Part shown: positions 1-32,000 of the stretch, piece after piece
Numbering within the stretch: position 1 is the stretch's first letter
Layout: each line of letters opens with the position of its first letter
Assembly (NCBI GenBank): GCA_964543385.1
Contig: CAZIYE010000001.1
Location: forward strand, 120,001-152,000
DNA from: an uncultured Candidatus Saccharibacteria bacterium
GTDB taxonomy: Bacteria; Patescibacteriota; UBA1384; XYA2-FULL-43-10; 1-14-0-10-43-13
Direction of reading: 5' to 3'
Length of the DNA stretch: 32,000 bases
The notes under the pieces: model-generated
Told to the model about the DNA's origin: nothing
What the model saw: the letters and a program-made list of their open reading frames with translations, nothing else
Database searches by the model: none
Translations under genes and position numbers: made by a program

Positions 1-1
1 A

Positions 2-205
2 TTTATGGCTGTAATTCTTGTCTTTGCGATTGAAATAATAAACACAGCAATTGAAAAGGTCTTTGATGTTCTGCATCCAGAAAAACATAATATTATAAGG
101 GCTGTTAAAGACGCGATGGCTGGTGCAGTCCTAATCAGTGCCATCATTGCCATCGTAGTTGCGCTTTTAATATTCTTGCCATACATTAAGAAACTAGTAT
201 TGTAG
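2..205 (+). CDS. dgkA: Diacylglycerol/undecaprenol kinase family protein, C-terminal fragment (5' end lies before the window)
   Basis: The frame is open from the window edge. The EIINTAIE...D...KDAMAGAV pattern followed by a terminal TM helix matches the prokaryotic DAGK family. Confidence 0.75.
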   Translation, partial: FMAVILVFAIEIINTAIEKVFDVLHPEKHNIIRAVKDAMAGAVLISAIIAIVVALLIFLPYIKKLVL

Positions 206-270
206 TCTTGCGAAGTAATCATCTATAAGGTAAAATTTACCTTATAGAAAAGTCATTTTTGGAGGGAACC

Positions 271-1506: not shown

Positions 1507-1538
1507 AAGTATTAAGTATTCATACCATAAGGACCAGC

Positions 1539-2699
1539 ATGATTGAAAAGAATTCGGAATTAGCCAATTTTGCCAATATCAAAGTTATTGGCGTTGGCGG
1601 CTCTGGAGGGAGCGCAGTCACTCGAATGATAAATTCGAAGCTGCGTGGTATTGAATTTATCGCAATTAATACAGATTCTCAGGCACTCGCTTTCAATGAA
1701 GCACCTGTAAAAATTCAGATAGGCAAAGAGTCAACTAGAGGATTAGGCGCTGGTGCTGATCCAGAAGTTGGTCGCAAAGCTGTTGAGGAAAACAAAGAAG
1801 AAGTATATGAAGCCTTAAAAGGTGCTGATATGGTCTTTGTTACTTGTGGTATGGGTGGTGGTACTGGCACTGGTGCCGCTCCTTTCGTAGCAGATATTGC
1901 AAAAGAACTCGGAGCTTTGACAGTTGGTGTTGTTACCAAGCCTTTTACTTTTGAAGGTATGCGAAGAAAGAAAATCGCCGAGCTCGGTATTGCCGAAATG
2001 AAAGAAAAAGTAGACACATTAATTACCATTCCAAACGATAGATTACTACAGGTAATAGATAAAAAGACTTCGCTTTTTGACGCATTTGGAATTGTTGACG
2101 ATGTCCTCAGACAAGGTGTTCAGGGCATTGCTGATCTTATCATCTACCATGGTCTTATAAACGTTGACTTTGCCGATGTTAAAGCTATCATGTCAGATGC
2201 TGGTAGCGCCCTAATGGGTATAGGTCACGGCACAGGAGACAACAGAGCTATCGAAGCAGCTAGAGCGGCTATTGATTCGCCACTTCTTGAGCTTTCAATA
2301 GATGGAGCAAAAGGCATTTTGTTCAACATTACTGGCGGTCCAGATCTTGGTATGTATGAAATCGATGAAGCTGCAAAAGCTATCACTGAAGCAGCAGATG
2401 CTGATGCCAATATTATCTTTGGCGCCATCATCGATGAAGCCATGCAAGGAGAAGTCAAAATTACAGTTATAGCTACCGGTTTTGAATCAGAACAGAATAG
2501 AACCCAGAAGAAACTTTTCTCTCCGGCTGAAACACCAGTATCAAACATTCCATCTTCTCAAATACTCAGACGAAATGAGAGAGCTTCATTTTTCTCAGAG
2601 CCTGAGCCTCCTCGAATTATGGACCAAAGGATTGTAGAAGAGGAAAACGATGAAGATGAGCTTGAAGTTCCTGCATTCATCCGCAGAAAATTAAAATAG
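1539..2699 (+). CDS. ftsZ: Cell division GTPase FtsZ
   Basis: It carries [10 protein letters not shown] and the tubulin signature [10 protein letters not shown], plus the conserved C-terminal peptide ([10 protein letters not shown]). AAGGA lies upstream of the ATG. Confidence 0.98.
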
Positions 2700-2718
2700 T
2701 CAAATACATAGTTACTAG

Positions 2719-2746
2719 AAAAACAGACTGTTAACAGTCTGTTTTT
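2719..2746 (+). terminator. Rho-independent terminator after ftsZ
   Basis: A perfect 12-bp stem aaaaacagactg / cagtctgttttt has loop ttaa and ends in a T-run. Confidence 0.8.
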
Positions 2747-2775
2747 CATTTTGCTTTACTTTCTGCTTCTGGGTA

Positions 2776-2804
2776 TTGACTACTATATATAGCGGTATTA
2801 TAAT
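2776..2804 (+). promoter_or_regulatory. Sigma70-type promoter TTGACT-17 bp-TATAAT upstream of nrdR
   Basis: TTGACT lies at 2776-2781 and TATAAT at 2799-2804, with an exact 17-bp spacer. Confidence 0.7.
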
Positions 2805-2826
2805 AAATGTATACTATATCTACTTT
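2780..2826 (+). promoter_or_regulatory. Two NrdR-box-like palindromes overlapping the nrdR promoter and 5' UTR
   Basis: Box 1 (2780-2795) has the perfect 10-bp palindromic core CTATATATAG. Box 2 (2811-2826) has the core CTATATCTAC. Each matches about 12/16 positions of the remembered consensus acaCwAtATaTwGtgt, and the centres are 31 bp apart. Confidence 0.5.
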
Positions 2827-2854
2827 ATTATTTTATAATCTTTATACTAAACCT

Positions 2855-3307
2855 ATGCTTTGCCCAGAATGTAAAAAATCAGACACAAAGGTTCTAGACT
2901 CACGGGACGACAGTCGTCTAATACGGAGAAGAAGGGAATGTTTGCGATGTCATTATCGTTTTACTACATATGAGAGAATAGAGTCACCTCGACTTAAAGT
3001 GATAAAGCGAAATGGTATTTCTGAAGAATATGAAAGAGAAAAATTGGCTCGAGGCATTCATCTTGCTTTAGAAAAAAGACCGATTTCCTGTAATCAAATT
3101 GAGAGTACAATTGATAGCATTGAGCACGACATTACTAAACTCAAGACCAAGTATATTACGAGCAAACAAATAGGTAAGTTCGTTATTGAAAGATTGAAAG
3201 AGGTTGATGAAGTAGCGTATCTACGCTTCCTCTCTGTATACAAGAGTTTCGGTAGCGCCTCAAAATTTCAGAAAGAGGCAGAGAAACTAACAAAAGATAA
3301 ACAATAG
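2855..3307 (+). CDS. nrdR: Transcriptional repressor NrdR (Zn-ribbon + ATP-cone)
   Basis: The protein starts MLCPECKKSDTKVLDSRD...CLRCHYRFTTYERIE, which is the canonical NrdR N-terminus. The track start at 2807 would add 16 non-homologous residues and lies inside the promoter. Confidence 0.93.
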   Translation: MLCPECKKSDTKVLDSRDDSRLIRRRRECLRCHYRFTTYERIESPRLKVIKRNGISEEYEREKLARGIHLALEKRPISCNQIESTIDSIEHDITKLKTKYITSKQIGKFVIERLKEVDEVAYLRFLSVYKSFGSASKFQKEAEKLTKDKQ

Positions 3308-3343
3308 AAAAAAACCAAAATATAATTAAATTAAGGAGTACTT

Positions 3344-3673
3344 ATGGCAATTTTGCACCCAGAAACTAAAGATGAGTTTGAGAAAATAGTTAAAGGCGAT
3401 AAACCTGTTTTGGCCGATTTCTATGCAGAGTGGTGTGGTCCATGTCAAATGATGGGACCAATCCTAGACGGTATGGTTGATAATTATAAGAATATAAAAA
3501 AAGTTGAAATAATAAAGGTTGATATTGATAAACTACGAGATGTTGCCTTGGACTTTGGCGTCATGAGCGTACCAACATTTATAATTTTCAAAGATGGTAA
3601 AGCGATAGATACTATGGTTGGAATGAGATCTCAATCGGATTTAGAGTCTAAGCTTGATGATCAATTAAAGTAA
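3344..3673 (+). CDS. trxA: Thioredoxin
   Basis: It is 109 aa with a WCGPC active site and an AAGGAG Shine-Dalgarno upstream. Confidence 0.95.
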   Translation: MAILHPETKDEFEKIVKGDKPVLADFYAEWCGPCQMMGPILDGMVDNYKNIKKVEIIKVDIDKLRDVALDFGVMSVPTFIIFKDGKAIDTMVGMRSQSDLESKLDDQLK

Positions 3674-3712
3674 ATGCTCACAAAGTCACTTTAATTGAAT
3701 CCATCTAAAAAC

Positions 3713-3740
3713 AAAAAAAGCGTTTTAAAACGCTTTTTTT
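3713..3740 (+). terminator. Bidirectional-type intrinsic terminator after trxA
   Basis: The palindrome A7-GCGTTTTAAAACGC-T7 forms a stem flanked by an A-tract and a T-tract. Confidence 0.8.
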
Positions 3741-3741
3741 G

Positions 3742-3770
3742 TTGACCTTTCTTAAAAAAAGTAGTATGAT
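3742..3770 (+). promoter_or_regulatory. Sigma70-type promoter TTGACC-17 bp-TATGAT driving the ORF-free region
   Basis: TTGACC lies at 3742-3747 and TATGAT at 3765-3770 with a 17-bp spacer. No ORF follows for more than 800 nt. Confidence 0.6.
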
Positions 3771-3776
3771 TCTACA

Positions 3777-4210
3777 CGTTTGTGAAACTTCGCATGCAAA
3801 GGAGGTAACAGATTTTGCGTCGAAATATGTGAGTAGTTCCCGTGATGGAGGGAGCGGCATCTAGCTCTTATGCACCTTTCGGAGAAATCTGAGAACGAAA
3901 GATGTTAAACGGAGTGCATATATCAAGCCGTGCCATCACGGGAACTACAGTGAAACACAAAAAAGCAGCTATGCTGCAATACCCCCTTGCCATATTAAAT
4001 ATGGCATTTCTTGCCTGCACCTAGCAGGGTCCTCGAAAGAGGATGCTTTCATCCTATGGCGGCCCCAGACCACGCCTGCTCTCCGAAATATATCGGATCA
4101 AGAGAAACTGGTGCTAAAGTGTGAAACGCGCACTCGCACATGCCTGTTCGGCCAGGCTTCTGGGAGACTTTACATAGGGCGGCTCGGTTAGTATATCGAG
4201 CCGCCCATTG
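3777..4210 (+). ncRNA. Unclassified ~430-nt G+C-rich structured RNA (module 1)
   Basis: No ORF of 60 aa or more occurs on either strand, and G+C is visibly above the flanks. A perfect 16-bp helix pairs 3833-3848 with 3933-3948 and encloses further pairings. Downstream is a series of short perfect hairpins (gcagc/gctgc 3965-3977, gccatat/atatggc, cctc-GAAA-gagg 4031-4042, aggatg/catcct 4040-4055, gcctg/caggc). It ends in a perfect 10-bp GC-rich hairpin, 4177-4186 with 4197-4206. The 5' end is inferred from the promoter. Confidence 0.5.
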
Positions 4211-4219
4211 CTTTACCTA

Positions 4220-4249
4220 TTGACTAATCACTAATAAGTGTGTTATAAT
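4220..4249 (+). promoter_or_regulatory. Candidate promoter TTGACT-18 bp-TATAAT (module 2)
   Basis: TTGACT lies at 4220-4225 and TATAAT at 4244-4249. Confidence 0.5.
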
Positions 4250-4255
4250 ATAATT

Positions 4256-4368
4256 GTTGACAGAGACTAGTGGAATACCTAGTAGCTGCAAAGTTCTTTG
4301 ATGATTTCCTCACCATTTGGTGAGGAAGCATGAGAGAGCAAACCACCTAATTTATGGGTGGTTTTTAT
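4256..4368 (+). ncRNA. Candidate ~110-nt small RNA (module 2) ending in a terminator-like hairpin
   Basis: It contains hairpins actag/ctagt (4266-4283) and a 9-bp ttcctcacc/ggtgaggaa (4306-4327). The terminal stem aaaccacc/ggtggttt (4340-4364) runs into TTTTT. Confidence 0.4.
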
Positions 4369-4377
4369 TATATATAG

Positions 4378-4510
4378 AAAAACGGGTCAGCAAGGTAGCC
4401 GCCCGTTGGAATGAACCTATAGCTCTCTCACAGGAGTGGCCTCTTGCTTTTGCAAGGAGAGGCTTAACTATAGGCTCTGACACTTTATATCTTATAGCGA
4501 GGCCATTGTC
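4378..4510. ncRNA. Structured element (module 3) upstream of pit; strand unresolved
   Basis: Helix tgagagagc (4331-4339) / gctctctca (4422-4430) crosses helix cctatag (4416-4422) / ctatagg (4468-4474), a pseudoknot topology. There is also an internal hairpin at 4439-4463. The minus strand offers ATGACA-17-TATAAG (about 4504-4532) and an acggg/cccgt+T5 terminator, so orientation is ambiguous. Confidence 0.35.
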
Positions 4511-4588
4511 AATTGTCATAAAGGATAATTGCACTTGTTGATAACTTTACTAGACAGAAACTAATTGCCCTTGATAGTATGACAAAGG

Positions 4589-5587
4589 ATGATAACAACT
4601 ACACTAATTCTCATAATAGTGATTATAATTCTGGCGCTGGTCTTTGATTTTACTAATGGGTTCCATGATGCTGCAAACTCTATTGCAACCGTAGTCTCAA
4701 CCCGTGTTCTATCGCCAAAACAAGCTGTCATATGGGCAGCCTTTTTTAATTTTATCGCCTTTTTAGTATTTGGTACTGCTGTTGCAAAAACAATTGGCAA
4801 GGGCATGATTGATATCAGTCAAGTAGATCAAATAGTAATCCTTGCAGGATTAGTCGGCACTATCATTTGGAATCTAACTACTTGGTATTTAGGTCTGCCA
4901 ACTAGCTCTTCACACGCCCTTATCGGTGGATATGCCGGAGCAGCAATCGCCAAAGCAGGTTTTGGAGTCATTATTGCAAGTGGCTGGACTAAAACCTTAA
5001 TTTTTATTGTTTTAGCCCCCACTATCGGTCTAGTTATAGGATTAGTTCTAATTACCACCATTAGCTGGCTTATTCAAAAACAGCCACTTGCCAAGGTGAA
5101 CAAGTGGTCAAAAATACTACAACTATTTTCTGCTGCTCTCTATAGTCTTGGTCATGGCGGTAATGATGCACAAAAGACAATGGGCATCATTGCTAGTCTT
5201 CTATTTTCTGCTGGCATCATGAAAACATTTGATATTCCGCTTTGGATAGTATTATCCTGTCATGGCGCAATTGCGCTTGGAACATTATTTGGTGGCTGGA
5301 GAATAGTCAAGACTATGGGCTCAAAAATTACAAAGCTTCGGCCCATCGATGGCTTTGCAGCAGAAACAGCAAGTGCTATCAGCATCTTCGTAGCTACTCA
5401 TATGGGCGTTCCCGTAAGCACAACTCATGTAATCACTGGCGCCATCTCCGGAGTAGGTGCAGCTAAGAGAATGTCAGCTGTCCGATGGGGAATAACACTA
5501 AGTATTGTTTGGGCTTGGCTTCTTACCATCCCTTTAGCTGCAATATTTTCTTTCACAACTTATCATATAATTAAACTTTTTAGCTAA
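4589..5587 (+). CDS. pit: Inorganic phosphate transporter, PiT (PHO4) family
   Basis: It is a 332-aa polytopic membrane protein. It carries the duplicated signature GFHDAANSIAT ... GGNDAQKTMGII ... STTHVITGAI. Confidence 0.93.
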   Translation: MITTTLILIIVIIILALVFDFTNGFHDAANSIATVVSTRVLSPKQAVIWAAFFNFIAFLVFGTAVAKTIGKGMIDISQVDQIVILAGLVGTIIWNLTTWYLGLPTSSSHALIGGYAGAAIAKAGFGVIIASGWTKTLIFIVLAPTIGLVIGLVLITTISWLIQKQPLAKVNKWSKILQLFSAALYSLGHGGNDAQKTMGIIASLLFSAGIMKTFDIPLWIVLSCHGAIALGTLFGGWRIVKTMGSKITKLRPIDGFAAETASAISIFVATHMGVPVSTTHVITGAISGVGAAKRMSAVRWGITLSIVWAWLLTIPLAAIFSFTTYHIIKLFS

Positions 5588-5596
5588 GGAGTAGCA

Positions 5597-6214
5597 ATGC
5601 AAATTTTCCCTAAAAATATCGACTTCTTTAAGCTTTTTGAAGAACAGGTCGCAGAGCTACAAAAAGCCGTACGTATCTTTCGTGATCTCGAAGAAAACAA
5701 TGATGTGAAGCGCCAAGCCATTAGAATAAAGAAAATCGAGCATTCTGCTGACGAAATCACTCATAAAATAATAATGACTCTAAATCAGACTTTTATTACT
5801 CCTATAGACAGAGAGGATATTGCCTCATTAGCAAGTCATCTCGATGATATTGTCGATGTAATGGATATGGCAATACACCGAATGTACATTTATAGGATGG
5901 AACCAATTCCAAAGGATACGTTCCTATATTTGCATCTGTCCGAAAAAGCAATTACCGAAATAGCTAAAGGCATAAAAGCTTTGAGTCACAAAAAAGGTGA
6001 GAATGAAGTTCTTAAACACTGCGAATTTGTGAATTTTATTGAGAATGAAGCGGATGATCATCATCGTAAAACTCTTGAAAAATTATTCAATGAAGAAAAA
6101 GACGCCATCGAACTTATTAAGAAAAAAGAAATATATGAGCTACTTGAAAGCATTACTGATAGATGCGAGGATGTGGCGAATACCCTTGAAACAATTGTAA
6201 TTAAAAATTCCTGA
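5597..6214 (+). CDS. DUF47 / PhoU-like Pit accessory protein
   Basis: It is 205 aa and helical, with the FITPIDREDI...LDDIVD pattern typical of the DUF47 (TIGR00153) family that pairs with pit. AAGGAG lies upstream. Confidence 0.85.
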   Translation: MQIFPKNIDFFKLFEEQVAELQKAVRIFRDLEENNDVKRQAIRIKKIEHSADEITHKIIMTLNQTFITPIDREDIASLASHLDDIVDVMDMAIHRMYIYRMEPIPKDTFLYLHLSEKAITEIAKGIKALSHKKGENEVLKHCEFVNFIENEADDHHRKTLEKLFNEEKDAIELIKKKEIYELLESITDRCEDVANTLETIVIKNS

Positions 6215-6384
6215 TACAAACAATAACAGTTAAAAAATCCCCCCAGCATATTAAAATATCCTGAGGGGGCGGAATGCTAGGGTAGGCAAAAAACCTGACT
6301 CTAACAATATATCTTTATTATATCACTATATATATTATATGTCAATAGGTGTTCAAGTTCTGTTCGTTCGTCTATAATAGTCTC

Positions 6385-9297
6385 ATGCAGCAGGATCTAT
6401 TCTCACACAGTCCATCAAAAAGCAAAATTTTAGATGGCCTAAATGAAGCCCAAGCCCAAGCAGTAGCTCATAATACTGGCCCGCTTTTGATTATTGCCGG
6501 TGCGGGAACAGGCAAGACAACAGTTATCACACGTCGTATCGCTTATCTGATAGAACGAAAAATTGCTAAACCCTCAGAAATCCTAGCTCTTACTTTTACA
6601 GAAAAAGCCGCTTCCGAGATGGAGGAGAGGGTTGATCAATTAGTTCCTTACGGCTATACAGACATGTGGATTTCCACCTTTCACGCTTTTGGCGACAGAC
6701 TGCTTAGGGACTTCTCTCTAGACCTCGGTTTGCCAGCCAATTTCAAAGTTTTGACGGCAACTGAACAAGCGATTTTCATGCGCCAAAATATCTACGCTTT
6801 TGATTTAAATTATTTTCGTCCGATCGCAAATCCACTTTCGCATATTAGCGCTCTGTTAAATCACTTTTCCAGACTCAAAGACGAATTAATTAACTCAGAA
6901 CAATATCTTGGATTTGCGCAACAAAATAAAGCCAAGGCAAACACTAAAGATGAGATCATCGAGGCTGAAAAAATACTTGAATTAGCAAGTGCCTATCAAA
7001 GATATCAAGATTTAATGATCCAATCAGGTAACCTTGATTTCGGCGATCAGATATACCTAACTTATAAATTATTAAAAGAAAATAAAAAAGTTTTAAATGA
7101 GTGCCAAGATCGCTTCAAATATATCTTGGTTGATGAATTTCAAGATACCAACCTTGCTCAGAATGAAATTGTAAAACTACTGGCAAGTCGAGATAAAAAT
7201 ATCACCGTAGTTGGAGATGATGACCAATCCATTTACCGTTTCAGAGGCGCATCCATTTCCAACATTATGGATTTCGTAGATTATTATTCTGATGCAAAAC
7301 AAGTAGTCCTAAATAATAATTACCGATCTACACAGGAAATCCTGGATTCTTCATACAAATTAATCAGCCACAATAATCCAGATCGGTTAGAAATACAAAA
7401 CAATATTAATAAGAGGCTAATTTCGCCCAAGCACGGTAGCAATCCAGAATTATTATTCTGCGATAATCTTAGTTGCGAAGCAGATAAAGTTGTCGAAAAA
7501 ATTAAAGGACTAAAAGAAAAACATAATTTTAAGAATAATGATTTTGCATTACTCGTAAGAGCTAACAGCCAAGCCGAACCTTTCCTGCAGTCACTAAATA
7601 TTGCCGGCATTCCATATATTTTCTCCGGTACCTCCGGTTTATTCTCACAAACAGAGATCAAAATGCTCGTGGCATTCCTAAAATCTCTTGTTTATACAGA
7701 CGACTCATTAGCCCTATACCAACTCGCAACTTCAGAGATTTACTCCATATCTCATGAGACTTTAGCTGAATATTATACTAAAGCAAAAAGATACAACCGC
7801 TCGCTAAAAACTATCCTAGAACAATCAGAGAGACAATCTCTTTTTAATGATGACATAAATGAGAATGGTAAATTAAAAGAATTAATCCTTGATATTCAGT
7901 CATATTCCGAAAAGAAAAATGATCCCTGCGGTGAAGTCCTTTATGATTATCTAAAAGAAAAAAAGTATCTAAAAAAACTGATAGAACAAACGTCGGTTGA
8001 AAATGAATTAAAGATTTACAATATTGCGAAATTTTTTGACAGGATTGCCCAATTCAATCACTCTAGCGACGACAAAGGAGTACACGCTTTCTTGAATAAT
8101 CTAGAGCTAATTCTAGAAGTAGGGGATGAAGTTATCACCTCCGACATCGACCCAGATATTGATGCTATTAATATTTTGACGGCTCATGCCTCAAAAGGAT
8201 TAGAGTGGCCAGTCGTTTTTATAGTGAATTGTGTTTCAGATAAATTTCCCGGAAGAAATAGGAGAGATCCGTTACCTATTCCACAAGAGCTCATTAAGGA
8301 AAGACTCCCTGAGGGGGACTTTCATCTGCAAGAGGAGCGAAGATTGTTCTATGTCGCTGCCACTCGTGCCAAGAACTATCTCTTTTTGACCTCAGCAGAG
8401 GATTATGGAGGTAAGCGTACGAAAAAGCTATCTCAGTTCGTCCTAGAGCTCCTGGACCAGCCAGATACCGATAAACTAAAGCACAAACTCTCCCCGTTAG
8501 AAAAGATTGAACGGTTTAAAAAACTTGAGCTTAAAAAGGCCAAACTCCCAAATAAATTTACCGCCGATATTATCAGACTCTCACGCCAGCAAATTGATGA
8601 TTATTTTTCATGTCCAAAAAAGTTTTACTTTGCTCATGTAATAAAGATACCGCTCTTAGAAAACCACTATCTTATGTACGGCACAGCGATTCATGCAGCT
8701 CTTGATCATTATTTTTCAAGAAAAATAAATGGCGCAACTCCAACTTTTGATCAATTAGTAGCTGATTACAATCAAGCTTTTCATAGTATTGGCTTTATTA
8801 CTCGTGATCAGGAAGAGCTTCGTCATAAGCAAGGGATAATTACACTGACCCGGTTCTACGATGAAGACCAGAATAATCCGACCATGCCGACCAAAGTTGA
8901 AGATGCTTTCGAATTTTATGAAAATAAAGTTCGAGTAAATGGCCGTTATGACTTGGTCTGTGGAGAAGGGGATACAACCGAAATAAGAGACTTCAAAACC
9001 TCAGACGTTAAAGAACAAAAAGATGCCGATCGAAGAATAAAAGATTCAACTCAGATGATGATCTATGCTCTTGCTTGGTATGAAAAATATAAAATAATTC
9101 CAAAAACGTCTCTAATTTTTATAGAATCTGGTCTTATGGGCAGTAAAACATTCAGTCTTAAAGATCTTGATAATACCAAGCAGATGATCTTCGAAGTTGC
9201 CGAAGGAATCAGAAAACAAGATATGACTGCCAAACCAGATAGTTACCAATGCAAACTGTGCCCATACTCAGACATATGCCCAGATAGTAAAGTTTAA
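6385..9297 (+). CDS. UvrD/PcrA-type SF1 helicase fused to a C-terminal Cas4/AddB-like PD-(D/E)XK Fe-S nuclease
   Basis: Helicase motifs are present: AGAGTGKTT, ILVDEFQDTN, VVGDDDQSIYRFRGA, NYRST, and LTAHASKGLEWPVVFI...RRLFYVAATRAK. The C-terminal domain (about 8570-9297) has Cys 8611 plus the CKLCPYSDIC cluster (Cys codons at 9250, 9259, 9277) and GRYDLV...EIRDFKT. ATG 6385 is preferred to the track's GTG 6349 (TATAAT at 6373-6378). Confidence 0.9.
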   Translation: MQQDLFSHSPSKSKILDGLNEAQAQAVAHNTGPLLIIAGAGTGKTTVITRRIAYLIERKIAKPSEILALTFTEKAASEMEERVDQLVPYGYTDMWISTFHAFGDRLLRDFSLDLGLPANFKVLTATEQAIFMRQNIYAFDLNYFRPIANPLSHISALLNHFSRLKDELINSEQYLGFAQQNKAKANTKDEIIEAEKILELASAYQRYQDLMIQSGNLDFGDQIYLTYKLLKENKKVLNECQDRFKYILVDEFQDTNLAQNEIVKLLASRDKNITVVGDDDQSIYRFRGASISNIMDFVDYYSDAKQVVLNNNYRSTQEILDSSYKLISHNNPDRLEIQNNINKRLISPKHGSNPELLFCDNLSCEADKVVEKIKGLKEKHNFKNNDFALLVRANSQAEPFLQSLNIAGIPYIFSGTSGLFSQTEIKMLVAFLKSLVYTDDSLALYQLATSEIYSISHETLAEYYTKAKRYNRSLKTILEQSERQSLFNDDINENGKLKELILDIQSYSEKKNDPCGEVLYDYLKEKKYLKKLIEQTSVENELKIYNIAKFFDRIAQFNHSSDDKGVHAFLNNLELILEVGDEVITSDIDPDIDAINILTAHASKGLEWPVVFIVNCVSDKFPGRNRRDPLPIPQELIKERLPEGDFHLQEERRLFYVAATRAKNYLFLTSAEDYGGKRTKKLSQFVLELLDQPDTDKLKHKLSPLEKIERFKKLELKKAKLPNKFTADIIRLSRQQIDDYFSCPKKFYFAHVIKIPLLENHYLMYGTAIHAALDHYFSRKINGATPTFDQLVADYNQAFHSIGFITRDQEELRHKQGIITLTRFYDEDQNNPTMPTKVEDAFEFYENKVRVNGRYDLVCGEGDTTEIRDFKTSDVKEQKDADRRIKDSTQMMIYALAWYEKYKIIPKTSLIFIESGLMGSKTFSLKDLDNTKQMIFEVAEGIRKQDMTAKPDSYQCKLCPYSDICPDSKV

Positions 9298-24432: not shown

Positions 24433-27400
24433 CTACTCGGATAAGTTAACTGGCTTACCTTCCTCAAGATGTTTATGATCGGCAATATTATGAGTATTAT
24501 TAACAATTAAGTCCTTATCCTGCTGTGCGGATACTTCCCTGCTCTCTTTCACTGCAGGCACAGATATAAAAACATTTTCCTCTGCTGAAATAATAGATGT
24601 CTGTTGCGTCGATAATGCTCTCGACTCCGGTATTATCGGCAAGTTCTGACTATTATCAGGCTTCTGATTATCAGCAACTAGATCAGGCTCAGTCTTACTT
24701 TCGGTATCAGGTGATTGCTTTATATCTTTATTTAAATGACTGGAATCATTCTTTTTTTCAGCATTTTGATCATTGGAGTGATGTTTATCATTCGCTAACG
24801 ACCCATTCTTATTTTTCTGGTCATGATGCATACTTTTTGGATTCTTCTCGGTCTTTTGATCGGCAACTTTTCGAGATAGATCAATAATCTTTTGGCCGTT
24901 ATCATCTATAATTGTACCTGACTTTTCTATTTTTTCTTTATCAATTTCTTCGCCCAAATACCACTTCACTCCCCCTCTAGCAGTGCGTTCCTTATAAATT
25001 TTACCATGCAAGATATTATCGTACCTAATAACACGAGGCTCCTTTTTTTTCTCGATCTCCCCCACCTCGCTATCTGCAGTAGTAACATCAGCATTGGATT
25101 GATTAGAGCCAGAAGCTACTTCAGGCTCGGCAGCAGCTAAATTAACTACAGTTTTCGACTCTATTTGCTGAGATAAAGGAGCAGCCGCTGATATACTAGT
25201 GTTAGCAGTGTTTGTAGCAGCATGAGTAGTAATAGGAGTAACTACGGGGGCAGAAACAGGAGTATGTGTAGTAGGAGCTGGTCGGTCGTGCTTTTTCAAA
25301 AGAATTGCCTCCAGACCACCCTTTTTAAAAGCCTCTGCTTCAGCTTTCAATTCATGTTCTTCCTGGGTACTTCGACCGCTTATCATCTCCTCGACATCAA
25401 CACGTCGAGTAGAATAAGTAGCGTGAGAATGCTCAATAACCTTTTGAATATTGCCTGTTAATCTCTGTACTGGTGGTAATGTTTTGGCAGAAAATGCGGG
25501 AGCAGCAACACCATCAACTAACAATTTGATATAGATATTAAATTTCTCAAGATTCAAAAGATCATTGGTTGTGAAAACTGGCTCAAACTCTTTTACCAAG
25601 ACATCTGCATCAGCTCCACCTACCCTAAATGAAATAAGCGTACCAGCGTTACCAAAGATCGCATCTCTAAGCTCTTCCGGAAGCTGTGTTATGTACTGGT
25701 GAGCCATCGTTAGACCGAGACCGTATTTTCTGGCTTCTGACAATATCACTGCAAAAGCTTCTGTTGCAAAGTTCTGAAACTCGTCCACATATAAGAAGCA
25801 ATCGGGGCGTTTATCCACAGTTACATTTGCCCGACTCATAGCTGCGAGCTGAATTTTAGTAATCATCATAGCACCAAGCAGTGCAGAGTTATCTTCACCA
25901 ATTTTCCCCCGAGATAGATTTACAATCAATATCTTTTCCTGATCCATTATCTCTCGGATGTTTATCCGTGATTTTGGTTGACCAACTATATTTCTAATTG
26001 TTGAAGAAGAAAGAAATTGACCGACTTTGTTTAGAATTGGTGAAACGGCTTCCGTTCTAAATTTATTATCAAATGAAGCAAACTCATTCATCCAGAACTC
26101 TTTAATAATAGGATCTTTGACATTTAATAAAACATTGTCCCTAAAGCGATTATTTGTTAACATTCGCGGAATATCAAGCATGGTAGCCCCCGGATGATCA
26201 AGAAGAGCCAAAACCGTGTTTCTAAGAATATGTTCCAGTCTTGGACCCCATGATTTATCGAAAAGTTTTTTAATAATACCAATAAAACCAGAGGCGACTA
26301 ATCCCTTGAAATCATCGTCAACAGTTTCTAGAAGATTAAAGGCAATTGGAAAATCGCGATCCGAAGGATCAAATACTATTACATCATTTACTCTCTCATC
26401 TGGTATACAAGATAAAACTTTTTCAGCAAGTTCTCCATGAGGATCAACAACAATAACACCAGATCCCTTGCATACATCGTTTATCGCCATATTCTCAATC
26501 AAAACAGATTTACCTACACCAGATTTACCTACAAGATAAATATGTCTTCTTCTATCGTCTCTCTTAATACCAAATTCAGTGAAAACATTGCGAAAATTAG
26601 TCATGCCAATAACCGTAAAATCCTCTGGCGGAATATTTGACCTAATTGGTAAATTTGCTGGCGGTTCACCCTTTTTCGAACCAGACCACACAATATTAGG
26701 TGTTGACACGGTGCTAGATGGAAAATGGAATAAAGATGCAAGCTCGGCGATATTAAATATATTGCCATCATCCTCGAAAGAACGACCGACATAATCTTGC
26801 CAAAGAGTATGGTCATTCGACTTTATCTCCCCTACTCTAAAACCATTTAGATTTGTTGTATTAAACTGTTTAAAAGCAGCGCAAACATTTCGACACTTTA
26901 ATTTGGCCGAGGTTGGATCTGTGCCCAATGCAACTATTCTTATCTTTGTCTCAAAACCTAATTTTGTAATTTTTTGCTCAATTCCCTTCAAAGCTTCCTC
27001 GACAGAAGCCTGTAGTTTGATATCTTTCTTATCATCTTTTTCGGAATAACCAGGATTAACAGCCTGAGACAAAAGACCCTTACCAACATTAGTAAATTCC
27101 TTTAGGAGAAGATTTGCAAAACCAAGTTTGGCTGTCGGCTTGCCACCAGATCGGACTGAATTTACCCTCGTATGCCCCTTTTCCTGCCAACGGTCACCCT
27201 TTGGTCTAATTATCATCTGAAACCAAATTTCTTCTCCTGCGCTCAATTGTGACATTACAGAAGTAATCGCTGAGATTGGGTCAACTTCGAAGTCTGTAAA
27301 TTGCTTGATAGGATATACATCGGGCTTTGTAAGCGCTAATTCAGTAATTGCAAAATTCTTTGATTCAACATCTGGCCGAACTGTATAATCCTCAACTTCA

Positions 27401-27756
27401 TGAATTTCAACATTCGGATATTGAGCGTAGACCTGCCCTTCAACAAAATCCTTCAAGTGAACTGGCAAATAGACGAAAAACTGTATGAATTTTTCCTTGG
27501 AAATAATCTCAAAACTTAAATGATATTGAAATTTAGCACTCTCTGAATAGATACCATGAATTGTAGCGAACATCTGTTCGGCAGCCATCGGTGATTTCTC
27601 ATTCATCCTAGGCACATCTATGCGAATAACGGTGTATTCCTGTGATGTCATCCACTGTATCTTCTTCATTCTATGATTAATACGAAAAATCGCCCATATC
27701 AAATAGATTGGACCAAAAATTAGAATAATATATAAAAGGTATAGGATAAAAGACAT
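24433..27756 (-). CDS. VirD4/TraD-like (FtsK-HerA superfamily) ATPase, paralogue B: N-terminal TM helix, shared ~350-aa N-domain, P-loop core, ~320-aa low-complexity tail
   Basis: It is 1107 aa. Walker A GKSGVGKS lies at 26506-26529 and Walker B CFLYVDEF at 25777-25800, followed by QNF...ILSEARKYGLGL..AHQY..QL......GNAGTLISFRVG. The TM segment is ILYLLYIILIFGPIYLIWAIF. Confidence 0.85.
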   Translation of the reverse strand: MSFILYLLYIILIFGPIYLIWAIFRINHRMKKIQWMTSQEYTVIRIDVPRMNEKSPMAAEQMFATIHGIYSESAKFQYHLSFEIISKEKFIQFFVYLPVHLKDFVEGQVYAQYPNVEIHEVEDYTVRPDVESKNFAITELALTKPDVYPIKQFTDFEVDPISAITSVMSQLSAGEEIWFQMIIRPKGDRWQEKGHTRVNSVRSGGKPTAKLGFANLLLKEFTNVGKGLLSQAVNPGYSEKDDKKDIKLQASVEEALKGIEQKITKLGFETKIRIVALGTDPTSAKLKCRNVCAAFKQFNTTNLNGFRVGEIKSNDHTLWQDYVGRSFEDDGNIFNIAELASLFHFPSSTVSTPNIVWSGSKKGEPPANLPIRSNIPPEDFTVIGMTNFRNVFTEFGIKRDDRRRHIYLVGKSGVGKSVLIENMAINDVCKGSGVIVVDPHGELAEKVLSCIPDERVNDVIVFDPSDRDFPIAFNLLETVDDDFKGLVASGFIGIIKKLFDKSWGPRLEHILRNTVLALLDHPGATMLDIPRMLTNNRFRDNVLLNVKDPIIKEFWMNEFASFDNKFRTEAVSPILNKVGQFLSSSTIRNIVGQPKSRINIREIMDQEKILIVNLSRGKIGEDNSALLGAMMITKIQLAAMSRANVTVDKRPDCFLYVDEFQNFATEAFAVILSEARKYGLGLTMAHQYITQLPEELRDAIFGNAGTLISFRVGGADADVLVKEFEPVFTTNDLLNLEKFNIYIKLLVDGVAAPAFSAKTLPPVQRLTGNIQKVIEHSHATYSTRRVDVEEMISGRSTQEEHELKAEAEAFKKGGLEAILLKKHDRPAPTTHTPVSAPVVTPITTHAATNTANTSISAAAPLSQQIESKTVVNLAAAEPEVASGSNQSNADVTTADSEVGEIEKKKEPRVIRYDNILHGKIYKERTARGGVKWYLGEEIDKEKIEKSGTIIDDNGQKIIDLSRKVADQKTEKNPKSMHHDQKNKNGSLANDKHHSNDQNAEKKNDSSHLNKDIKQSPDTESKTEPDLVADNQKPDNSQNLPIIPESRALSTQQTSIISAEENVFISVPAVKESREVSAQQDKDLIVNNTHNIADHKHLEEGKPVNLSE

Positions 27757-27802
27757 TTAAACCTTCAATAAATCTGGGAAGGATAATATTCCTTCTAACA
27801 AT

Positions 27803-27831
27803 ATTATATAAGAGATTAGATTTTTTTGCAA
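27803..27831 (-). promoter_or_regulatory. Promoter TTGCAA-17 bp-TATAAT for ATPase paralogue B
   Basis: On the minus strand the -35 is at plus 27826-27831 and the -10 at plus 27803-27808, with a 17-bp spacer. Confidence 0.6.
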
Positions 27832-27842
27832 AGAGATCGAAG

Positions 27843-27884
27843 ATAAAAATGACCTTTTGCGGCCGTAAAGCGCCATGGCAAAGG
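27843..27884 (-). terminator. Probable terminator after the sigma-r4/HARE-HTH gene
   Basis: On the minus strand, cctttgc...gcaaaagg encloses a GC-rich inner stem and is followed by TCATTTTTA. Confidence 0.45.
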
Positions 27885-27885
27885 A

Positions 27886-28914
27886 TTATGCCAAGATATA
27901 TTTGTCCTTAGCCGACTTTTTGAAAAATGGCTTGGTCTGAAGATTTATAAGTATTGTATTTTTTTTAACTAGTCTTTGCTTCAAAACAGCCTCGATAATA
28001 GCAGATGCGCTCATGCCATCTGATTTGTCGGATAAGATATTTTTAATTATGTCAGCAACAGTTCCCTCTTGGTATCCCCACTCTTTCAAGGCATAAATAC
28101 CTCTACCAACTAAGATAAATCTATCATCAGCAATCAGCTCATTATGAACAGTAGCTTTCACAATATTTTTACCATCGAAACTTTGCTCCCCTATTTTTTT
28201 TGCGATTTCATCGAAATGCATAGGTTTTGCTATCCTCTTCAAAATATAATAGATTTTGTCTCTAACATTTTTTGGATTTACTTCTGGCCATGAAGCCAAA
28301 CCGATATGACCGGTTTCTGTCTTAACCAATTTCTTGCTGATATGAGGAAGCTCCGATAAAAATGCTACCTGATACTTCGAATGACCTGGATGATTATCTA
28401 TTAGTACATCTAGCGTTTCAGGCTTCTTACTCTTTTTCAAATGTTCGGCCCAATCATTTATGACTTTTATTGCATCGTCTTTTGACAATGATGCAAGTAA
28501 CCAACCAGCCTCTAGCTCTTTTGTTTTTTCAATTTTCATAATCTGAGGCATCAGACTTAAAATTAAATGCAGAGAATTGAACTCATTCTTATTTCTCCAG
28601 AACGATTCTTCTAGAAATTTTTCAGTAATTTTTTCATGGCATGTGATTCCACCGCTCTTTTCAAAAGTATCAACTATTTGCTCGATATAAAGATTATTCT
28701 TTTCAACAAAAAATCTAGCCAACTTTCTCAAGCCCTCACGCTCAATTTGACGAATTCTTTCACGAGATAATTTCAGTTCCTTACCAATTGCTGATAGAGT
28801 TTTATGACTTGTTTCAATACCAAAACGACCCGAAATAACTATATTTTCATTCGGCTTCAAATCGTTTATAACCTCTTTAACAATCTTGTAAGGGCTAAAA
28901 TTTTTAATAACCAT
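27886..28914 (-). CDS. DNA-binding protein with sigma-70 region-4 HTH (N-terminal) and HARE-HTH/RpoE-delta-like winged helix (C-terminal); no sigma region 2
   Basis: The N-terminal part has ISGRFGI....TL.AIGKELKLSRERIRQIEREGLRKL, a sigma r4.2 signature. The C-terminal part has MHFDEIAKKI.....VHNELIADDRFILVGRGIYALKEWGY, which is HARE-HTH-like. Confidence 0.75.
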   Translation of the reverse strand: MVIKNFSPYKIVKEVINDLKPNENIVISGRFGIETSHKTLSAIGKELKLSRERIRQIEREGLRKLARFFVEKNNLYIEQIVDTFEKSGGITCHEKITEKFLEESFWRNKNEFNSLHLILSLMPQIMKIEKTKELEAGWLLASLSKDDAIKVINDWAEHLKKSKKPETLDVLIDNHPGHSKYQVAFLSELPHISKKLVKTETGHIGLASWPEVNPKNVRDKIYYILKRIAKPMHFDEIAKKIGEQSFDGKNIVKATVHNELIADDRFILVGRGIYALKEWGYQEGTVADIIKNILSDKSDGMSASAIIEAVLKQRLVKKNTILINLQTKPFFKKSAKDKYILA

Positions 28915-28927
28915 TATATTTCCTTGT

Positions 28928-29440
28928 CTAATTAGTTTTATCTAATAGATTTTCAACTGCAGCCCATTCGCTGGGTCTATCCTCGGGAACAAGTATTGTA
29001 AGTTTGTTTCCTGGTTCTGCTTTGAAATAACTTATTGATGCTGGCAACACTCGATATTGCATGCTTTCACAATTAACCACATATTTACCTTCTGATAATT
29101 CCTTTAAAAGACCAATCTTTTTCTGCCTTTTTACGGGGCCAATTTGTTTATACAAGAAAGTCCCATCGGGCAAAATCGTAAGCTTTAGGATATCTCCGGC
29201 AACAAGTTTTGACTTAGAGGCATAGTTCGCCGGTATATCATAATGCCTTTTGTCTGAACCAATCATGCCTTCGCCGTCGAAAACACCTTCTATAATCTTA
29301 CTATCTTTATCATCTCCACCCAATTCTTCAACTTTTTGTGATAGTTCTCGCGAAAAAAGTAAGTCCTTTGCTTGGCAGATATTATTTTCAGCAAGGTCTA
29401 AAAGCTGTTTTATTGAGGATAGGTCTTTATTTGTCAACAT
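28928..29440 (-). CDS. Conserved hypothetical protein, coiled-coil N-terminus + beta-rich C-terminus
   Basis: It is 170 aa. The pattern IEGVFDGEGMIG.D...Y.IPANYASKSKLV.GD.LKLTI..DG...YKQIGP recalls proteins I have seen widely in Patescibacteria genomes. It ends 13 nt upstream of the following gene. Confidence 0.65.
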   Translation of the reverse strand: MLTNKDLSSIKQLLDLAENNICQAKDLLFSRELSQKVEELGGDDKDSKIIEGVFDGEGMIGSDKRHYDIPANYASKSKLVAGDILKLTILPDGTFLYKQIGPVKRQKKIGLLKELSEGKYVVNCESMQYRVLPASISYFKAEPGNKLTILVPEDRPSEWAAVENLLDKTN

Positions 29441-29553
29441 TTTTTCTCTTTGTTTTTATTTAAATGTGTTTTAGCATTTCATATACACAAAATTACATTA
29501 CCACATAATTGGCAATGCGTCAACACATTTTAGATAACTTTTTTTACATAAAA

Positions 29554-32000
29554 TTATAGTGTTGGCTGAGAAGATGTCGGCTGCAGGCCAGGGAGATCTA
29601 TTTTATCTACTCGAGAACGTTCAAGTATTTCTGCCTCTACTAGCTCCTTGGGTTTACCATATTTTAATCGAGACAACTCTTTTATCGCTGCTCCTAATTT
29701 TTGGTTGCCATCATAATCATCCGGCCAAATACTCTGACCATTGAATGGTCTCGTTGGCGCTCCATCAATCAGCTCCTTGATATAAAAATTATATTTGTCG
29801 ATTGTAGTCAAGTCCTCGATTTTTAATGGATCAAATTCCTTTACAAAGAATTCTGCATCAGCGGCACCCATTCTAAAAGCAATTAGGGTTCCGGCGTTTC
29901 CCACTACAGCTGCTCTTATCTTCTCATCAAGCTGTTCAATATACTGATTTGTAATTGCTAGGCCCAATTTATATTTACGAGACTCTGACAAAATAGTTGC
30001 AAAAACATCTGTAATAAAATTCTGGAACTCATCAACATATAAGAAAAATGGAATTCTATCCTTCTCTAATATATCTTGGCGTGAAAATGCACCCATCGCA
30101 ATTTTGGAAACTATAATCATACCAAGAAGAAATGCATTAATCTCCCCTATCATACCTTTCGATAGATTGCAGATTAGAATCTTCTTGTTATCCATTACAT
30201 CACGGAAATCAAAAGATGATTTTGTCTGGCCTATGATATTGCGCATCATATCATTGGTCATAAAGCGGCCAAACTTTGAAGTAAAATAGTTAAGCATTTC
30301 TGATTTATGGAAATCAGCTGTTTTAGCCATTTGCTTTTCCCAAAAAGATTTAACCACAGGATCAGTCACATATTGGACTCTATCTTTTTCGAAATCAGGA
30401 TCAGTAAACAATCTTGGAACATCTATAATTGTTCCTCCTTCTGGATGAGACATCAAAGTAAGCGCAGCATTCCTCATCCAATGCTCAAACTGAGGGCCTA
30501 CCATGCCTGTCTGATTTGGATCAAACAGTTTATAGAATATTTGTATTGATTCCTGAACTAAGAAGTCCCTCTGATCTGGTGTTTTCCATTCCAACATGTT
30601 GAGACCCATCGGTCTTTCCTTATCTGCAGGATTGAAATAGATGACATCATCAGCACGCTCTTTTGGTATATGATTTAGGATCCATTCTGCGGCATCACCA
30701 TTTGGATCAAGATAACAAACTCCATGACCTTCTTTGATGTCTTGCAAAATCATATTTTGAAATAAAACAGTTTTACCCACACCAGTTTTACCTATCTGAT
30801 AAACATGTCTAAGGCGGTCTGATTGCTTGACCCTAATCATTTTCTCTTCACCTCGGAATATTGCCTTACCGACAACAGTACCCTCGGTTGGCAGATTTGC
30901 TGGCGGCGCCTCACGTCTAGCTAATAGCCAAGAAATATTAGGTGTATCAACATAGCGATTTGGCAGGTGAAAAATAGACGCAAGTTCTTCCGTATTAAGT
31001 GCAAATCTCGGCATAACACTAAATATCCTAAAAATATATGAGGTGATCTCCTCATTTTTCTGACGTGCTTTCTTGACCGAGAAACCATTTGAGTCAGGAG
31101 AATGAAATTGATTAAATGCAGCAGCAGTATTCTTACAAATCTGTGCAGCAGTAAGTTTGTCTTTTGCAACTGCAACAATTCTAATCTGAGCGTCAAAGCC
31201 AAGTTTAGCAGCCTTTTCGCCTAACAATTTTACTTGTGCTTCTTGCTGTGGCGTCATTTTCATTGGATTCTTTGGATCATAGAGAGCGCTATGTTCCTCT
31301 TCCTGATTTCCTTTAGCTGCATTTGTTGCAGCACCAACAAAATTGAAAAATGATTCACTACCCCGCACAAAAGCAGAATTGGAGTGAGAAATTCGAGATT
31401 TGCCATGTTGTATGTTAAAAGCGGTCCTCTCTCCCTGTAACCGCCAAGATCCATCCGTCGGCCTAACTAGCATCTGGACTCCGGCGAACTGGTCTGCGCT
31501 CAATTTTGAGAGAGAGTTTGTAAGCGAATTAAGCGGATCTTCTTCTAAGTTTTTATAAGTCTTGATTGGGAAATAGTGTCTTTTTATTAAACCAAGATTT
31601 AAAATTTCCACCTTAAGAGGTTTCTCGGGAAAAATAGAATATTCTGAGTCCTCTTGTATTTCAGCATAAGGATATTGAGCTTGAAGATTTTTCAGAACCA
31701 TATCAGATATGCATCGTGGACAGCCAACGTAGAAAAAGATAAGACCATCCTTAGCAATTAATTCCACAGAAATGTGAGGCTGACCTTTCAGTCTATTTAC
31801 AACCGAAAAATCAAATAACGAATTTAGATTTGCATAAAATGGTTCAATAACTGCCAACATTTCCTGGAAATTCTTTCGCTGATCATCTTCCTCAGCATGA
31901 CGATCCTTGGGAACCATTATTTTAAACATTACCCAATCTTTTGTCATCTCAAGTTGAGAACTTCGCACAAACATTTTCCTTAAATAAATAACTAACCAAA
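29554..32000 (-). CDS. VirD4/TraD-like (FtsK-HerA superfamily) ATPase, paralogue A; probably 5'-truncated by the window edge
   Basis: It is 806 aa from ATG 31974. Walker A GKTGVGKT lies at 30769-30792 and Walker B FFLYVDEF at 30025-30048. The frame stays open from 31975 to 32000 (...WLVIYLRK-MFVRSS) and aligns with the end of the TM helix of paralogue B (IWAIFRINHRM), so the true start is probably beyond position 32000. Confidence 0.85.
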   Translation of the reverse strand, partial: WLVIYLRKMFVRSSQLEMTKDWVMFKIMVPKDRHAEEDDQRKNFQEMLAVIEPFYANLNSLFDFSVVNRLKGQPHISVELIAKDGLIFFYVGCPRCISDMVLKNLQAQYPYAEIQEDSEYSIFPEKPLKVEILNLGLIKRHYFPIKTYKNLEEDPLNSLTNSLSKLSADQFAGVQMLVRPTDGSWRLQGERTAFNIQHGKSRISHSNSAFVRGSESFFNFVGAATNAAKGNQEEEHSALYDPKNPMKMTPQQEAQVKLLGEKAAKLGFDAQIRIVAVAKDKLTAAQICKNTAAAFNQFHSPDSNGFSVKKARQKNEEITSYIFRIFSVMPRFALNTEELASIFHLPNRYVDTPNISWLLARREAPPANLPTEGTVVGKAIFRGEEKMIRVKQSDRLRHVYQIGKTGVGKTVLFQNMILQDIKEGHGVCYLDPNGDAAEWILNHIPKERADDVIYFNPADKERPMGLNMLEWKTPDQRDFLVQESIQIFYKLFDPNQTGMVGPQFEHWMRNAALTLMSHPEGGTIIDVPRLFTDPDFEKDRVQYVTDPVVKSFWEKQMAKTADFHKSEMLNYFTSKFGRFMTNDMMRNIIGQTKSSFDFRDVMDNKKILICNLSKGMIGEINAFLLGMIIVSKIAMGAFSRQDILEKDRIPFFLYVDEFQNFITDVFATILSESRKYKLGLAITNQYIEQLDEKIRAAVVGNAGTLIAFRMGAADAEFFVKEFDPLKIEDLTTIDKYNFYIKELIDGAPTRPFNGQSIWPDDYDGNQKLGAAIKELSRLKYGKPKELVEAEILERSRVDKIDLPGLQPTSSQPTL

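Follow-up and report, generated by a model that had tools for sequence, protein, structure and literature searches.

Patescibacteria, which account for much of bacterial diversity, obtain nucleotides from their hosts and need a type IV secretion system (T4SS) for epibiotic growth. Genes for type IV coupling proteins (T4CPs) are often encoded apart from virB4, and the T4SS of Patescibacteria normally lies elsewhere on the chromosome. The locus described here belongs to a stretch of 32,000 nucleotides, hereafter the window, from an uncultured Candidatus Saccharibacteria bacterium (assembly GCA_964543385.1, contig CAZIYE010000001.1, positions 120,001 to 152,000), and encodes two VirD4-type ATPases, paralogues A and B, together with a small protein (S170) and a helix-turn-helix (HTH) protein. 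A survey of Patescibacteria has found 5,713 VirD4-type T4CP homologues in 2,918 of 3,035 genomes (96%) and VirB4 in 2,417, and has stated that an exaptation of these T4CPs "cannot be ruled out" (Quinonero-Coronel et al., 2025, PMC12102498). The essential T4SS of S. epibionticum has no recognisable coupling and relaxase proteins, and protein export is the presumed task of the relaxase-less T4SSs of Patescibacteria (Wang et al., 2023, PMC10633639). A and B belong to the VirD4-type T4CP homologues that the survey has already counted as orphans, about two per genome (PMC12102498), and the locus is a lineage-specific arrangement of this known, near-universal Patescibacteria gene pair. While the occurrence of some two orphan T4CP-like genes per genome is thus known, their domain architecture, the depth of their duplication and their linkage to S170 are undescribed in the searchable literature, where beyond the survey no description of the family in phages or in the candidate phyla radiation (CPR) was found.

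The T4CPs (VirD4, TrwB, TraD and DotL) share with A and B a homologous nucleotide-binding domain, in which Walker A, DPxG, a putative helical insert, Walker B and TraG-D_C follow one another, as well as an N-terminal membrane anchor, and the disordered C-terminal tail of A resembles that of TraD. Unlike the T4CPs, A and B have one transmembrane (TM) helix instead of two, followed by a DUF8128 domain of approximately 340 amino acids (aa) before the motor, an unusual N-terminus that had already been remarked upon in the original prediction, which was made from the letters of this DNA. They also lack an adjacent relaxase or T4SS, occur as what appear to be two ancient paralogues per genome and fall far below every NCBIfam equivalog cutoff. 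A large N-terminal domain is likewise present in VirB4/TrwK and in the stand-alone protein TrsD, which resembles the VirB4 N-terminal domain (NTD), and TrwK/VirB4 also possess a C-terminal motor of the FtsK/HerA class. In contrast to VirB4, A and B carry a motor of T4CP type and have no VirB3 or VirB6 neighbour, and Patescibacteria own a separate, bona fide VirB4. FtsK, Streptomyces TraB and the archaeal Ced ATPases are comparable, being ring ATPases associated with the membrane that translocate nucleic acid and need no relaxase; a weak NCBIfam match to CedD occurs in the P-loop region of A and B, and Streptomyces plasmid 'ATP/GTP-binding proteins' are found among the relatives of the motor. 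However, A and B have neither a multi-pass membrane domain nor a gamma domain, and this likeness is confined to the generic motor.

Domain architecture of the paired ATPases

Structure models and profile comparisons suggest that A and B combine a TM helix, a VirB4-NTD-like head and a VirD4-type motor, a hybrid of which no description was found in the searchable literature. The features of the two paralogues are the following.

24433 to 27756, minus strand: open reading frame (ORF) of paralogue A, 1107 aa, with TM helix, DUF8128 N-domain, T4CP-type motor and low-complexity C-terminal tail
27673 to 27756, minus strand: residues 1-28 of A, single N-terminal TM helix found by hydropathy scan, then RINHRMKK
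26641 to 27651, minus strand: residues 36-372 of A, DUF8128 N-domain with a predicted VirB4-NTD-like fold (AlphaFold2, Foldseek)
25357 to 26640, minus strand: residues ~373-800 of A, T4CP-class (VirD4/TrwB-like) nucleotide-binding domain with putative helical insert (hhalign, PDB profiles, motifs)
24436 to 25356, minus strand: residues 801-1107 of A, low-complexity tail recognised by composition, A type only
24943 to 25035, minus strand: residues 908-938 of A, conserved island found by alignment, RVIRYDNILHGKIYKERTARGGVKWYLGEEI
29554 to 31974, minus strand: ORF of paralogue B, truncated by the window end at 32000, with TM helix, DUF8128 and T4CP-type motor

The two proteins are paralogous, as had been proposed on the basis of shared strings: residues 34-803 of A align with residues 7-794 of B (37% identity, E = 2e-168), and all the strings quoted fall inside this alignment. 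Both also contain the ATPase motifs that had been pointed out, namely Walker A GKxGxGK[ST], DPxG, Walker B YVDEFQNF, ARKY and GN[AV]G, and the catalytic motifs are intact in 96 of 96 CPR homologues examined, in both clades. In Pfam scans, TrwB_AAD_bind was detected on A with 33.4 bits (cutoff 20.5) and T4SS-DNA_transf on B with 27.7 bits (cutoff 20.1), and TraG-D_C was passed by A (22.4 bits, cutoff 22), with B just short of it at 19.3. The best NCBIfam match, SXT_TraD, reached 39-55 bits versus an equivalog cutoff of 366. A family profile built from 73 sequences was compared by hhalign with R388 TrwB, giving a probability of 94.5% (E 7.6e-8) over 276 columns that begin ahead of Walker A and end beyond Walker B, whereas R388 TrwK/VirB4 gave a probability of 2.4% with the P-loop alone aligned; a profile search of the PDB returned DotL and TrwB alone. 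Taking into account the breadth of the TrwB match, the restriction of the VirB4 match to the P-loop and the outcome of the PDB search, the motor of A and B is T4CP-class by sequence and not VirB4-class. The all-alpha insert region is covered by the alignments (TrwB 108-393; TrwB_AAD_bind positions 11-303) and its sequence looks helical. Pfam detected neither AAA_10 nor CagE_TrbE_VirB in A or B, and neither Pfam nor NCBIfam detected FtsK_SpoIIIE; the membrane segment is a single TM helix, not a multi-pass domain. A replacement of FtsK by these proteins was considered and rejected, given that TM7x has an annotated ftsK and that A and B show no match to the FtsK family. The picture of membrane-anchored ATPases of the T4CP class is in agreement with the original prediction, one TM helix and a TrwB-like motor being found in each.

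The positive-inside rule suggests that A is oriented with its N-terminus outside and its C-terminus inside, the remainder of the protein being cytoplasmic. Profiles, structure prediction and Foldseek, which had been recommended as a check of the N-domain, gave DUF8128 (PF26449) and a VirB4-NTD-like fold. PF26449 is assigned to a database protein that is 100% identical to A (P0121, which also carries a precomputed PF10412), to the complete copy of B on the same contig (L086) and to all listed homologues; the assignment was taken from precomputed database annotation and was not reported by the local Pfam scan. The database copy of A is annotated with a later start codon, and it was through P0121 that the locus was recovered. 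The domain is uncharacterised, with a literature search returning nothing on DUF8128, but it is already catalogued in Pfam. Its family has 3,270 representatives at 50% identity, with the domain N-terminal in every case.

The AlphaFold2 model of the A N-domain has a predicted local distance difference test (pLDDT) score of 87.8 and a predicted TM-score (pTM) of 0.83. When this model was compared with the PDB by Foldseek, 13 of the 14 matches at E <= 1e-3 were R388 TrwK/VirB4 chains, with a probability of 1.0, a query TM-score (TMq) of 0.44-0.50 and 8-11% identity. The N-domain contains no P-loop and Foldseek matched no further P-loop ATPase, which suggests that the match is to the VirB4-specific N-terminal domain; at the sequence level, no likeness of DUF8128 to that domain was found. 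In the viral library of Foldseek the model matched gp156 and gp155 of phage G, plus a protein annotated 'Component of type IV transporter system'. An N-domain-matching phage protein carries a CagE/TrbE/VirB description, and gp155 is VirB4-like by Pfam (P-loop_TraG/AAA_10).

At the other end of A, the conserved island in the low-complexity tail is marked by the motif [YF]K[ED].T[AS]RG..[KR]W, which all 42 A-type rows of alignment A2 contain and which the B type lacks. This conservation makes the island a possible candidate for a partner-docking motif.

Conservation and genomic context of the gene pair

In a distance tree (neighbour-joining, rooted with phage homologues), to which long-branch caveats apply, the A sequences form a clade whose sister group is the B clade in its entirety, and the branching within one clade mirrors that within the other. 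Such congruent sister clades point to a duplication older than the sampled radiation and to co-inheritance of the pair, so that A and B probably represent an ancient duplication that has been inherited vertically and jointly. A-type homologues are 1000-1180 aa long and B-type homologues approximately 850 aa.

The four minus-strand ORFs of the original prediction are all found where it had placed them, although that of B, while present, is incomplete in the window. Its reading frame is open up to 31998, and the residues preceding it correspond to the end of the TM helix in homologues of ~850 aa. Contig L086 matches the window over a 17,568 bp overlap with 0 mismatches, and its positions 1-5669 are for this reason taken as the true sequence past position 32000; there, full-length B comprises 852 aa with one TM helix and starts 112 nt past the window end.

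A scan of species-representative genomes yielded at least 598 relatives, of which 80 loci were kept, covering most Patescibacteria classes and all of B type. The order found in the window, B-S170-HTH-A with short gaps, is confined to relatives with 63% or more identity to B (L001-L008), all of which have it, and to L091 and one further contig, both retrieved via S170 homologues. B directly adjoins A in three loci (L009-L011), and in another (L089) the order is B-S170-A without the HTH gene. About a dozen loci from Doudnabacteria, Uhrbacteria and relatives have B with S170 27 nt to 4.6 kb downstream and no A within 10 kb, an A-type copy lies ~8 kb upstream of B in a Kazan locus (L019), and B stands alone in Microgenomatia, Saccharimonadia, Paceibacteria and Gracilibacteria. 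In an unbiased clustering of 83 non-redundant loci, no family besides the ATPase occurred in more than about 20 of them, and T4SS or relaxase genes were near B in none of the 83, at least 50 of which extend ~10 kb to each side.

The remaining features between A and B are the following.

28928 to 29440, minus strand: ORF of S170, 170 aa, in the model a long helix at the N-terminus and then two beta-barrels of OB/S1-like type
27886 to 28914, minus strand: ORF of a 342-aa protein with sigma-70 region 4 and HARE-HTH (Pfam)
27803 to 27831, minus strand: promoter-like sequence match TTGCAA-17-TATAAT, 5' of A

S170 matches no Pfam family, and its own family has at least 7958 members. In the model (pLDDT 87.6) a helix of 36 residues precedes two small beta-barrels, and the protein is mostly beta, as the original description of a beta-rich protein implied. 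Its Foldseek matches were RNase R, an S1-repeat protein, the Rho RNA-binding domain and the coiled-coil-OB region of ARC; all of them belong to nucleic-acid binders of the oligonucleotide/oligosaccharide-binding (OB), S1 or cold-shock type or to the coiled-coil-OB N-domain of proteasomal ATPases, and they are weak (TMq ~0.3), so that an OB-like fold is only weakly indicated by the model. S170 is encoded downstream of B and in the same orientation in 18 loci with the family, plus three contexts obtained by reciprocal look-up, and is a conserved downstream neighbour of B over several lineages. Iterated hidden Markov model searches added no loci to the S170 or HTH families. One S170 homologue (P0246, 77% identical) is annotated in one source as 'antitoxin component of MazEF toxin-antitoxin module', a name that disagrees with the predicted helix and two OB-like barrels and is therefore probably a mis-annotation. 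The 113-nt spacer between B and S170 (29441-29553, minus strand) folds somewhat better than shuffled sequences (-18.2 kcal/mol, z = -1.98), and holds a promoter-like site, TTGACG-17-TAATGT, together with a 9-bp hairpin that has a U-rich stretch after it.

The 342-aa protein consists of sigma region 4 (Sigma70_r4, 1.5e-11, residues 16-65) and HARE-HTH (2.8e-10) alone, as originally described, and is basic, with a pI of 9.4. Sigma region 2 and any other domain were missing from Pfam and NCBIfam scans, and since region 2 is lacking the protein is not a sigma factor. In the original prediction it was given the part of a DNA-recognition adaptor, forming with B, S170 and A one possibly heteromeric DNA-translocation module. 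The order kept in L001-L008, L091 and one further contig, the gap of 13 nt between the S170 and HTH genes, the basic nature of the protein and the DNA-binding or Replic_Relax genes that also follow the phage relatives are in line with this model. Nonetheless, the HTH gene is missing from the B-A, B-S170-A and B-S170 arrangements and lies between the ATPases only in a narrow clade, members of its family are found ~8 kb off and on either strand in L020, L040 and L048, and B is alone within 22 kb in most lineages. Neighbourhood mapping thus speaks against the four-gene block as a general module, and the model as a whole is improbable. The distant and variable position of the HTH family elsewhere indicates that the gene was inserted here in one lineage and does not encode a dedicated adaptor; the protein would probably be a general transcription or DNA-binding factor that stands outside the machine.

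Division of the locus into at least two or three transcription units had also been put forward, on the basis of promoters and a terminator. The promoter hexamers exist, but promoter-like sites occur at chance level (28 found versus 26.9 expected), and the hairpin proposed as a terminator at 27843-27884 is weak (-10 kcal/mol, z = -1.06). With signals that are indistinguishable from chance, these units are unverified.

Upstream of B, past the window edge, four tightly spaced genes were found on L086 (307-5542), encoding proteins of 351 aa, 115 aa (DUF5663), 947 aa and 236 aa, with no Pfam family except DUF5663. They are of low complexity, evolve very fast and are kept in the nearest relatives alone, with only DUF5663 recurring, in nine loci. 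The 236-aa protein has a signal-like N-terminus and a C-terminal TM helix, the 947-aa protein has glycine-rich hydrophobic stretches and the 351-aa protein is disordered. These genes may be co-transcribed with B and could encode surface proteins or substrates. Hidden T4SS parts were considered and rejected for them, given the lack of Pfam matches, the lack of a polytopic VirB6-like protein and their conservation in the nearest relatives alone. A and B could be motors for protein substrates, recruiting and exporting effectors in the manner of effector-translocating T4CPs, and the disordered proteins just upstream of B would be candidate substrates. Tight spacing, low complexity and fast evolution are typical of secreted or surface proteins, relaxase-less Patescibacteria T4SSs are thought to export proteins, and the conserved island in the tail of A could bind adaptors or substrates. 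Against this stand the restriction of the upstream genes to the nearest relatives, as well as the OB-like S170 and the DNA-handling phage contexts, which favour nucleic acid, and protein export has little probability as the function of the pair.

The rest of the window is core chromosome, with genes for FtsA, FtsZ, a phosphate transporter, an AddA-like helicase-nuclease, Maf, RmuC, RluD, SecD/F and DUF1290. The AddA-type protein (982 aa, 6349-9297), which combines a UvrD helicase with a nuclease domain of the PD-(D/E)XK type, is encoded within a few kb of FtsA/FtsZ in an ordinary core-chromosome context. In a relative with 85% identity, the genes that come after the four upstream of B are tgt and those of ribosomal proteins. 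Profile scans of the window detected no T4SS, relaxase or integrase family, in keeping with what had been read from the sequence, and the window contains no tRNA gene; past position 32000, where further inspection had been advised, the L086 sequence contains no VirB4, relaxase or integrase, and neither do the 10 kb around the relatives. Base composition in the region (GC 0.35-0.42) equals that of the rest of the window and is uniform throughout, as expected of host chromosome.

In other lineages, the neighbours of B are lineage-specific: ribonucleotide reductase (RNR) and NrdR, a XerC/D-type recombinase, DivIC, GyrA/B and DnaX. In approximately 13-17 loci (L026 5252-13911 and similar ones in Microgenomatia) one flank of a lone B holds NrdR, ribonucleotide reductase and cobalamin adenosyltransferase and the other flank a XerC/D-type tyrosine recombinase with DivIC, and GyrB, GyrA and DnaX are close to B in other lineages. 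These neighbours could reflect synteny only, or a link with replication and division.

Housekeeping neighbours and vertical inheritance fit the view, held from the start, of a chromosomal locus that is not the remnant of a conjugative element. A remnant of an integrative and conjugative element was rejected, there being no integrase, relaxase, VirB4 or att/tRNA boundary and a typical base composition. A broader reading, in which the locus is a defence system with a HerA/mad8-like ATPase or a domesticated mobile-element remnant, draws on a PADLOC match to mad8 (6.5e-15) and weak HerA matches in the motor, on MzaA similarity in region 4 of the HTH protein, and on the homologues in phages and plasmids. 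The PADLOC matches cover only the generic motor or region 4, and the window contains none of the further mad/Mza components, such as a nuclease, Sir2 or a methyltransferase. Moreover, the family is near-universal, vertically inherited and set within housekeeping synteny, and the locus has no integrase, tRNA or repeat boundary and no deviating base composition. This reading is very improbable, and its defence-system form was dropped in view of the generic-domain matches and the housekeeping context.

Relatives in phages and plasmids

Homologues that include the N-domain and extend over the full length have been detected in Bacillus phages (22-25% identity over 70-93% of the query; Foldseek TMq 0.68), among them gp156 of phage G, gp129 of CampHawk and an SP8 protein named 'VirD4 component-like'. 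PHROG 5156 matches A over its full length (1.6e-99). These are genes of lytic phages and, in contrast to A and B, lie beside VirB6- and VirB4-like genes in phage G or beside actin and Replic_Relax genes in CampHawk. In phage G (L095 1920-7484), gp153 belongs to the TrbL/VirB6 family, gp154 is small, gp155 is VirB4-like and gp156 is the family member, followed by an HNH endonuclease. By family assignment, gp153-gp156 form a compact T4SS-type inner-membrane gene set in a lytic jumbo phage. In CampHawk (L087 2584-8109, gp134-gp128), the homologue has 906 aa, shares its operon with the actin gene and overlaps the downstream Replic_Relax (plasmid replication-relaxation) gene.

Relatives comprising the motor only are found on 487 plasmids, chiefly those of Bacillus, Streptomyces, Staphylococcus, haloarchaea and Sulfolobus. 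A 395-aa motor-only protein on the alphaproteobacterial plasmid NZ_CP081110.1 of Sulfitobacter mediterraneus (L093 8989-10176) shares 40.6% identity with the A motor and is closer to it than any phage or Firmicute relative; the plasmid is predicted to be non-mobilizable, and its record contains another match. This copy may reflect horizontal transfer of the motor module; it was not retained as an informative relative, being a motor-only fragment amid transposases.

Proposed role of the ATPase pair

A and B are most likely membrane translocation motors. A role in trans with the Patescibacteria T4SS is favoured because this system has no other coupling protein, because the head of A and B is VirB4-like and because the phage G member stands beside VirB6- and VirB4-like genes; it is put forward here as a plausible, if tentative, reading. 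VirB4 is known to dimerise via its N-terminal domain in R388 structures. A and B would likewise pair through their VirB4-like domains and form membrane-docked ring ATPases, possibly mixed, an A/B heteromer being possible. A polymer, in all likelihood single-stranded nucleic acid, would be threaded through the ring, and S170 would assist by binding the substrate or serving as a collar. The pair would in this way supply the missing coupling ATPases of the relaxase-less T4SS encoded elsewhere, onto which the VirB4-like head may dock.

Several observations weigh against a role with the T4SS. Only 148 of the 5,713 Patescibacteria T4CP homologues are near virB4, and the t4cp homologue of S. epibionticum is non-essential for epibiotic growth, for which the T4SS genes are essential (PMC12102498). 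The comparison of 96% with 80% of genomes in the same survey leaves at least some 500 genomes with T4CP homologues in which VirB4 was not detected (PMC12102498). The CampHawk homologue, in an SPO1-like phage, lies beside an Alp7A/ParM-like actin and Replic_Relax, not beside T4SS genes, a context that would suggest segregation or DNA processing rather than secretion. Among the 487 plasmids with motor relatives, 397 are predicted to be non-mobilizable, and the OB-fold assignment of S170 is weak, with a best E of 4e-4 (to RNase R). Redundancy between the paralogues could mask a requirement for them in S. epibionticum, and the excess over VirB4 could be due in part to the incompleteness of metagenome-assembled genomes acting on a two-copy family.

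Much of this would be expected if A and B were an autonomous nucleic-acid translocase, independent of the T4SS and comparable in principle to Streptomyces TraB or FtsK, which would act on chromosomal, plasmid or scavenged DNA or RNA in segregation, uptake or export, with S170 as a single-strand-binding partner. The dearth of T4SS genes near B throughout the 83 loci, the DNA-metabolism and division genes among its lineage-specific neighbours and the OB-like fold of S170 agree with such a translocase, as do the wider distribution than that of VirB4, the dispensable S. epibionticum homologue, the non-mobilizable plasmids and the CampHawk operon. Yet subunits with a single TM helix could hardly build a channel unless other membrane proteins took part, the neighbours may be mere synteny, and TM7x has its separate annotated ftsK and no evident gap in chromosome segregation. 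The linkage of the phage G member to VirB6-like and VirB4-like genes and the VirB4-like head, which suggests docking onto T4SS-type partners, also speak against independence, and an autonomous translocase, although the foremost of the rival readings, is considered rather unlikely.

The role in trans with the T4SS has a more far-reaching form, in which A and B constitute an unrecognised hybrid class of T4SS ATPases, established as two paralogues ahead of the Patescibacteria radiation, that forms with S170 a cytoplasmic motor and pulls host-derived RNA or DNA inwards through the relaxase-less T4SS. This is quite unlikely. If true, the hybrid motor would be the missing coupling or energising step in the feeding of nucleotide-auxotrophic epibionts. 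The family is near-universal and has been dismissed as orphan T4CPs, in organisms for whose T4SS neither a coupling protein nor a relaxase nor a substrate has been recognised. Testable hypotheses follow on the formation of heteromers, on docking to the inner-membrane complex of the T4SS and on the handling of nucleic acid, and these would bear on the Patescibacteria lifestyle as well as on the divergence of the VirB4 and VirD4 ATPases.

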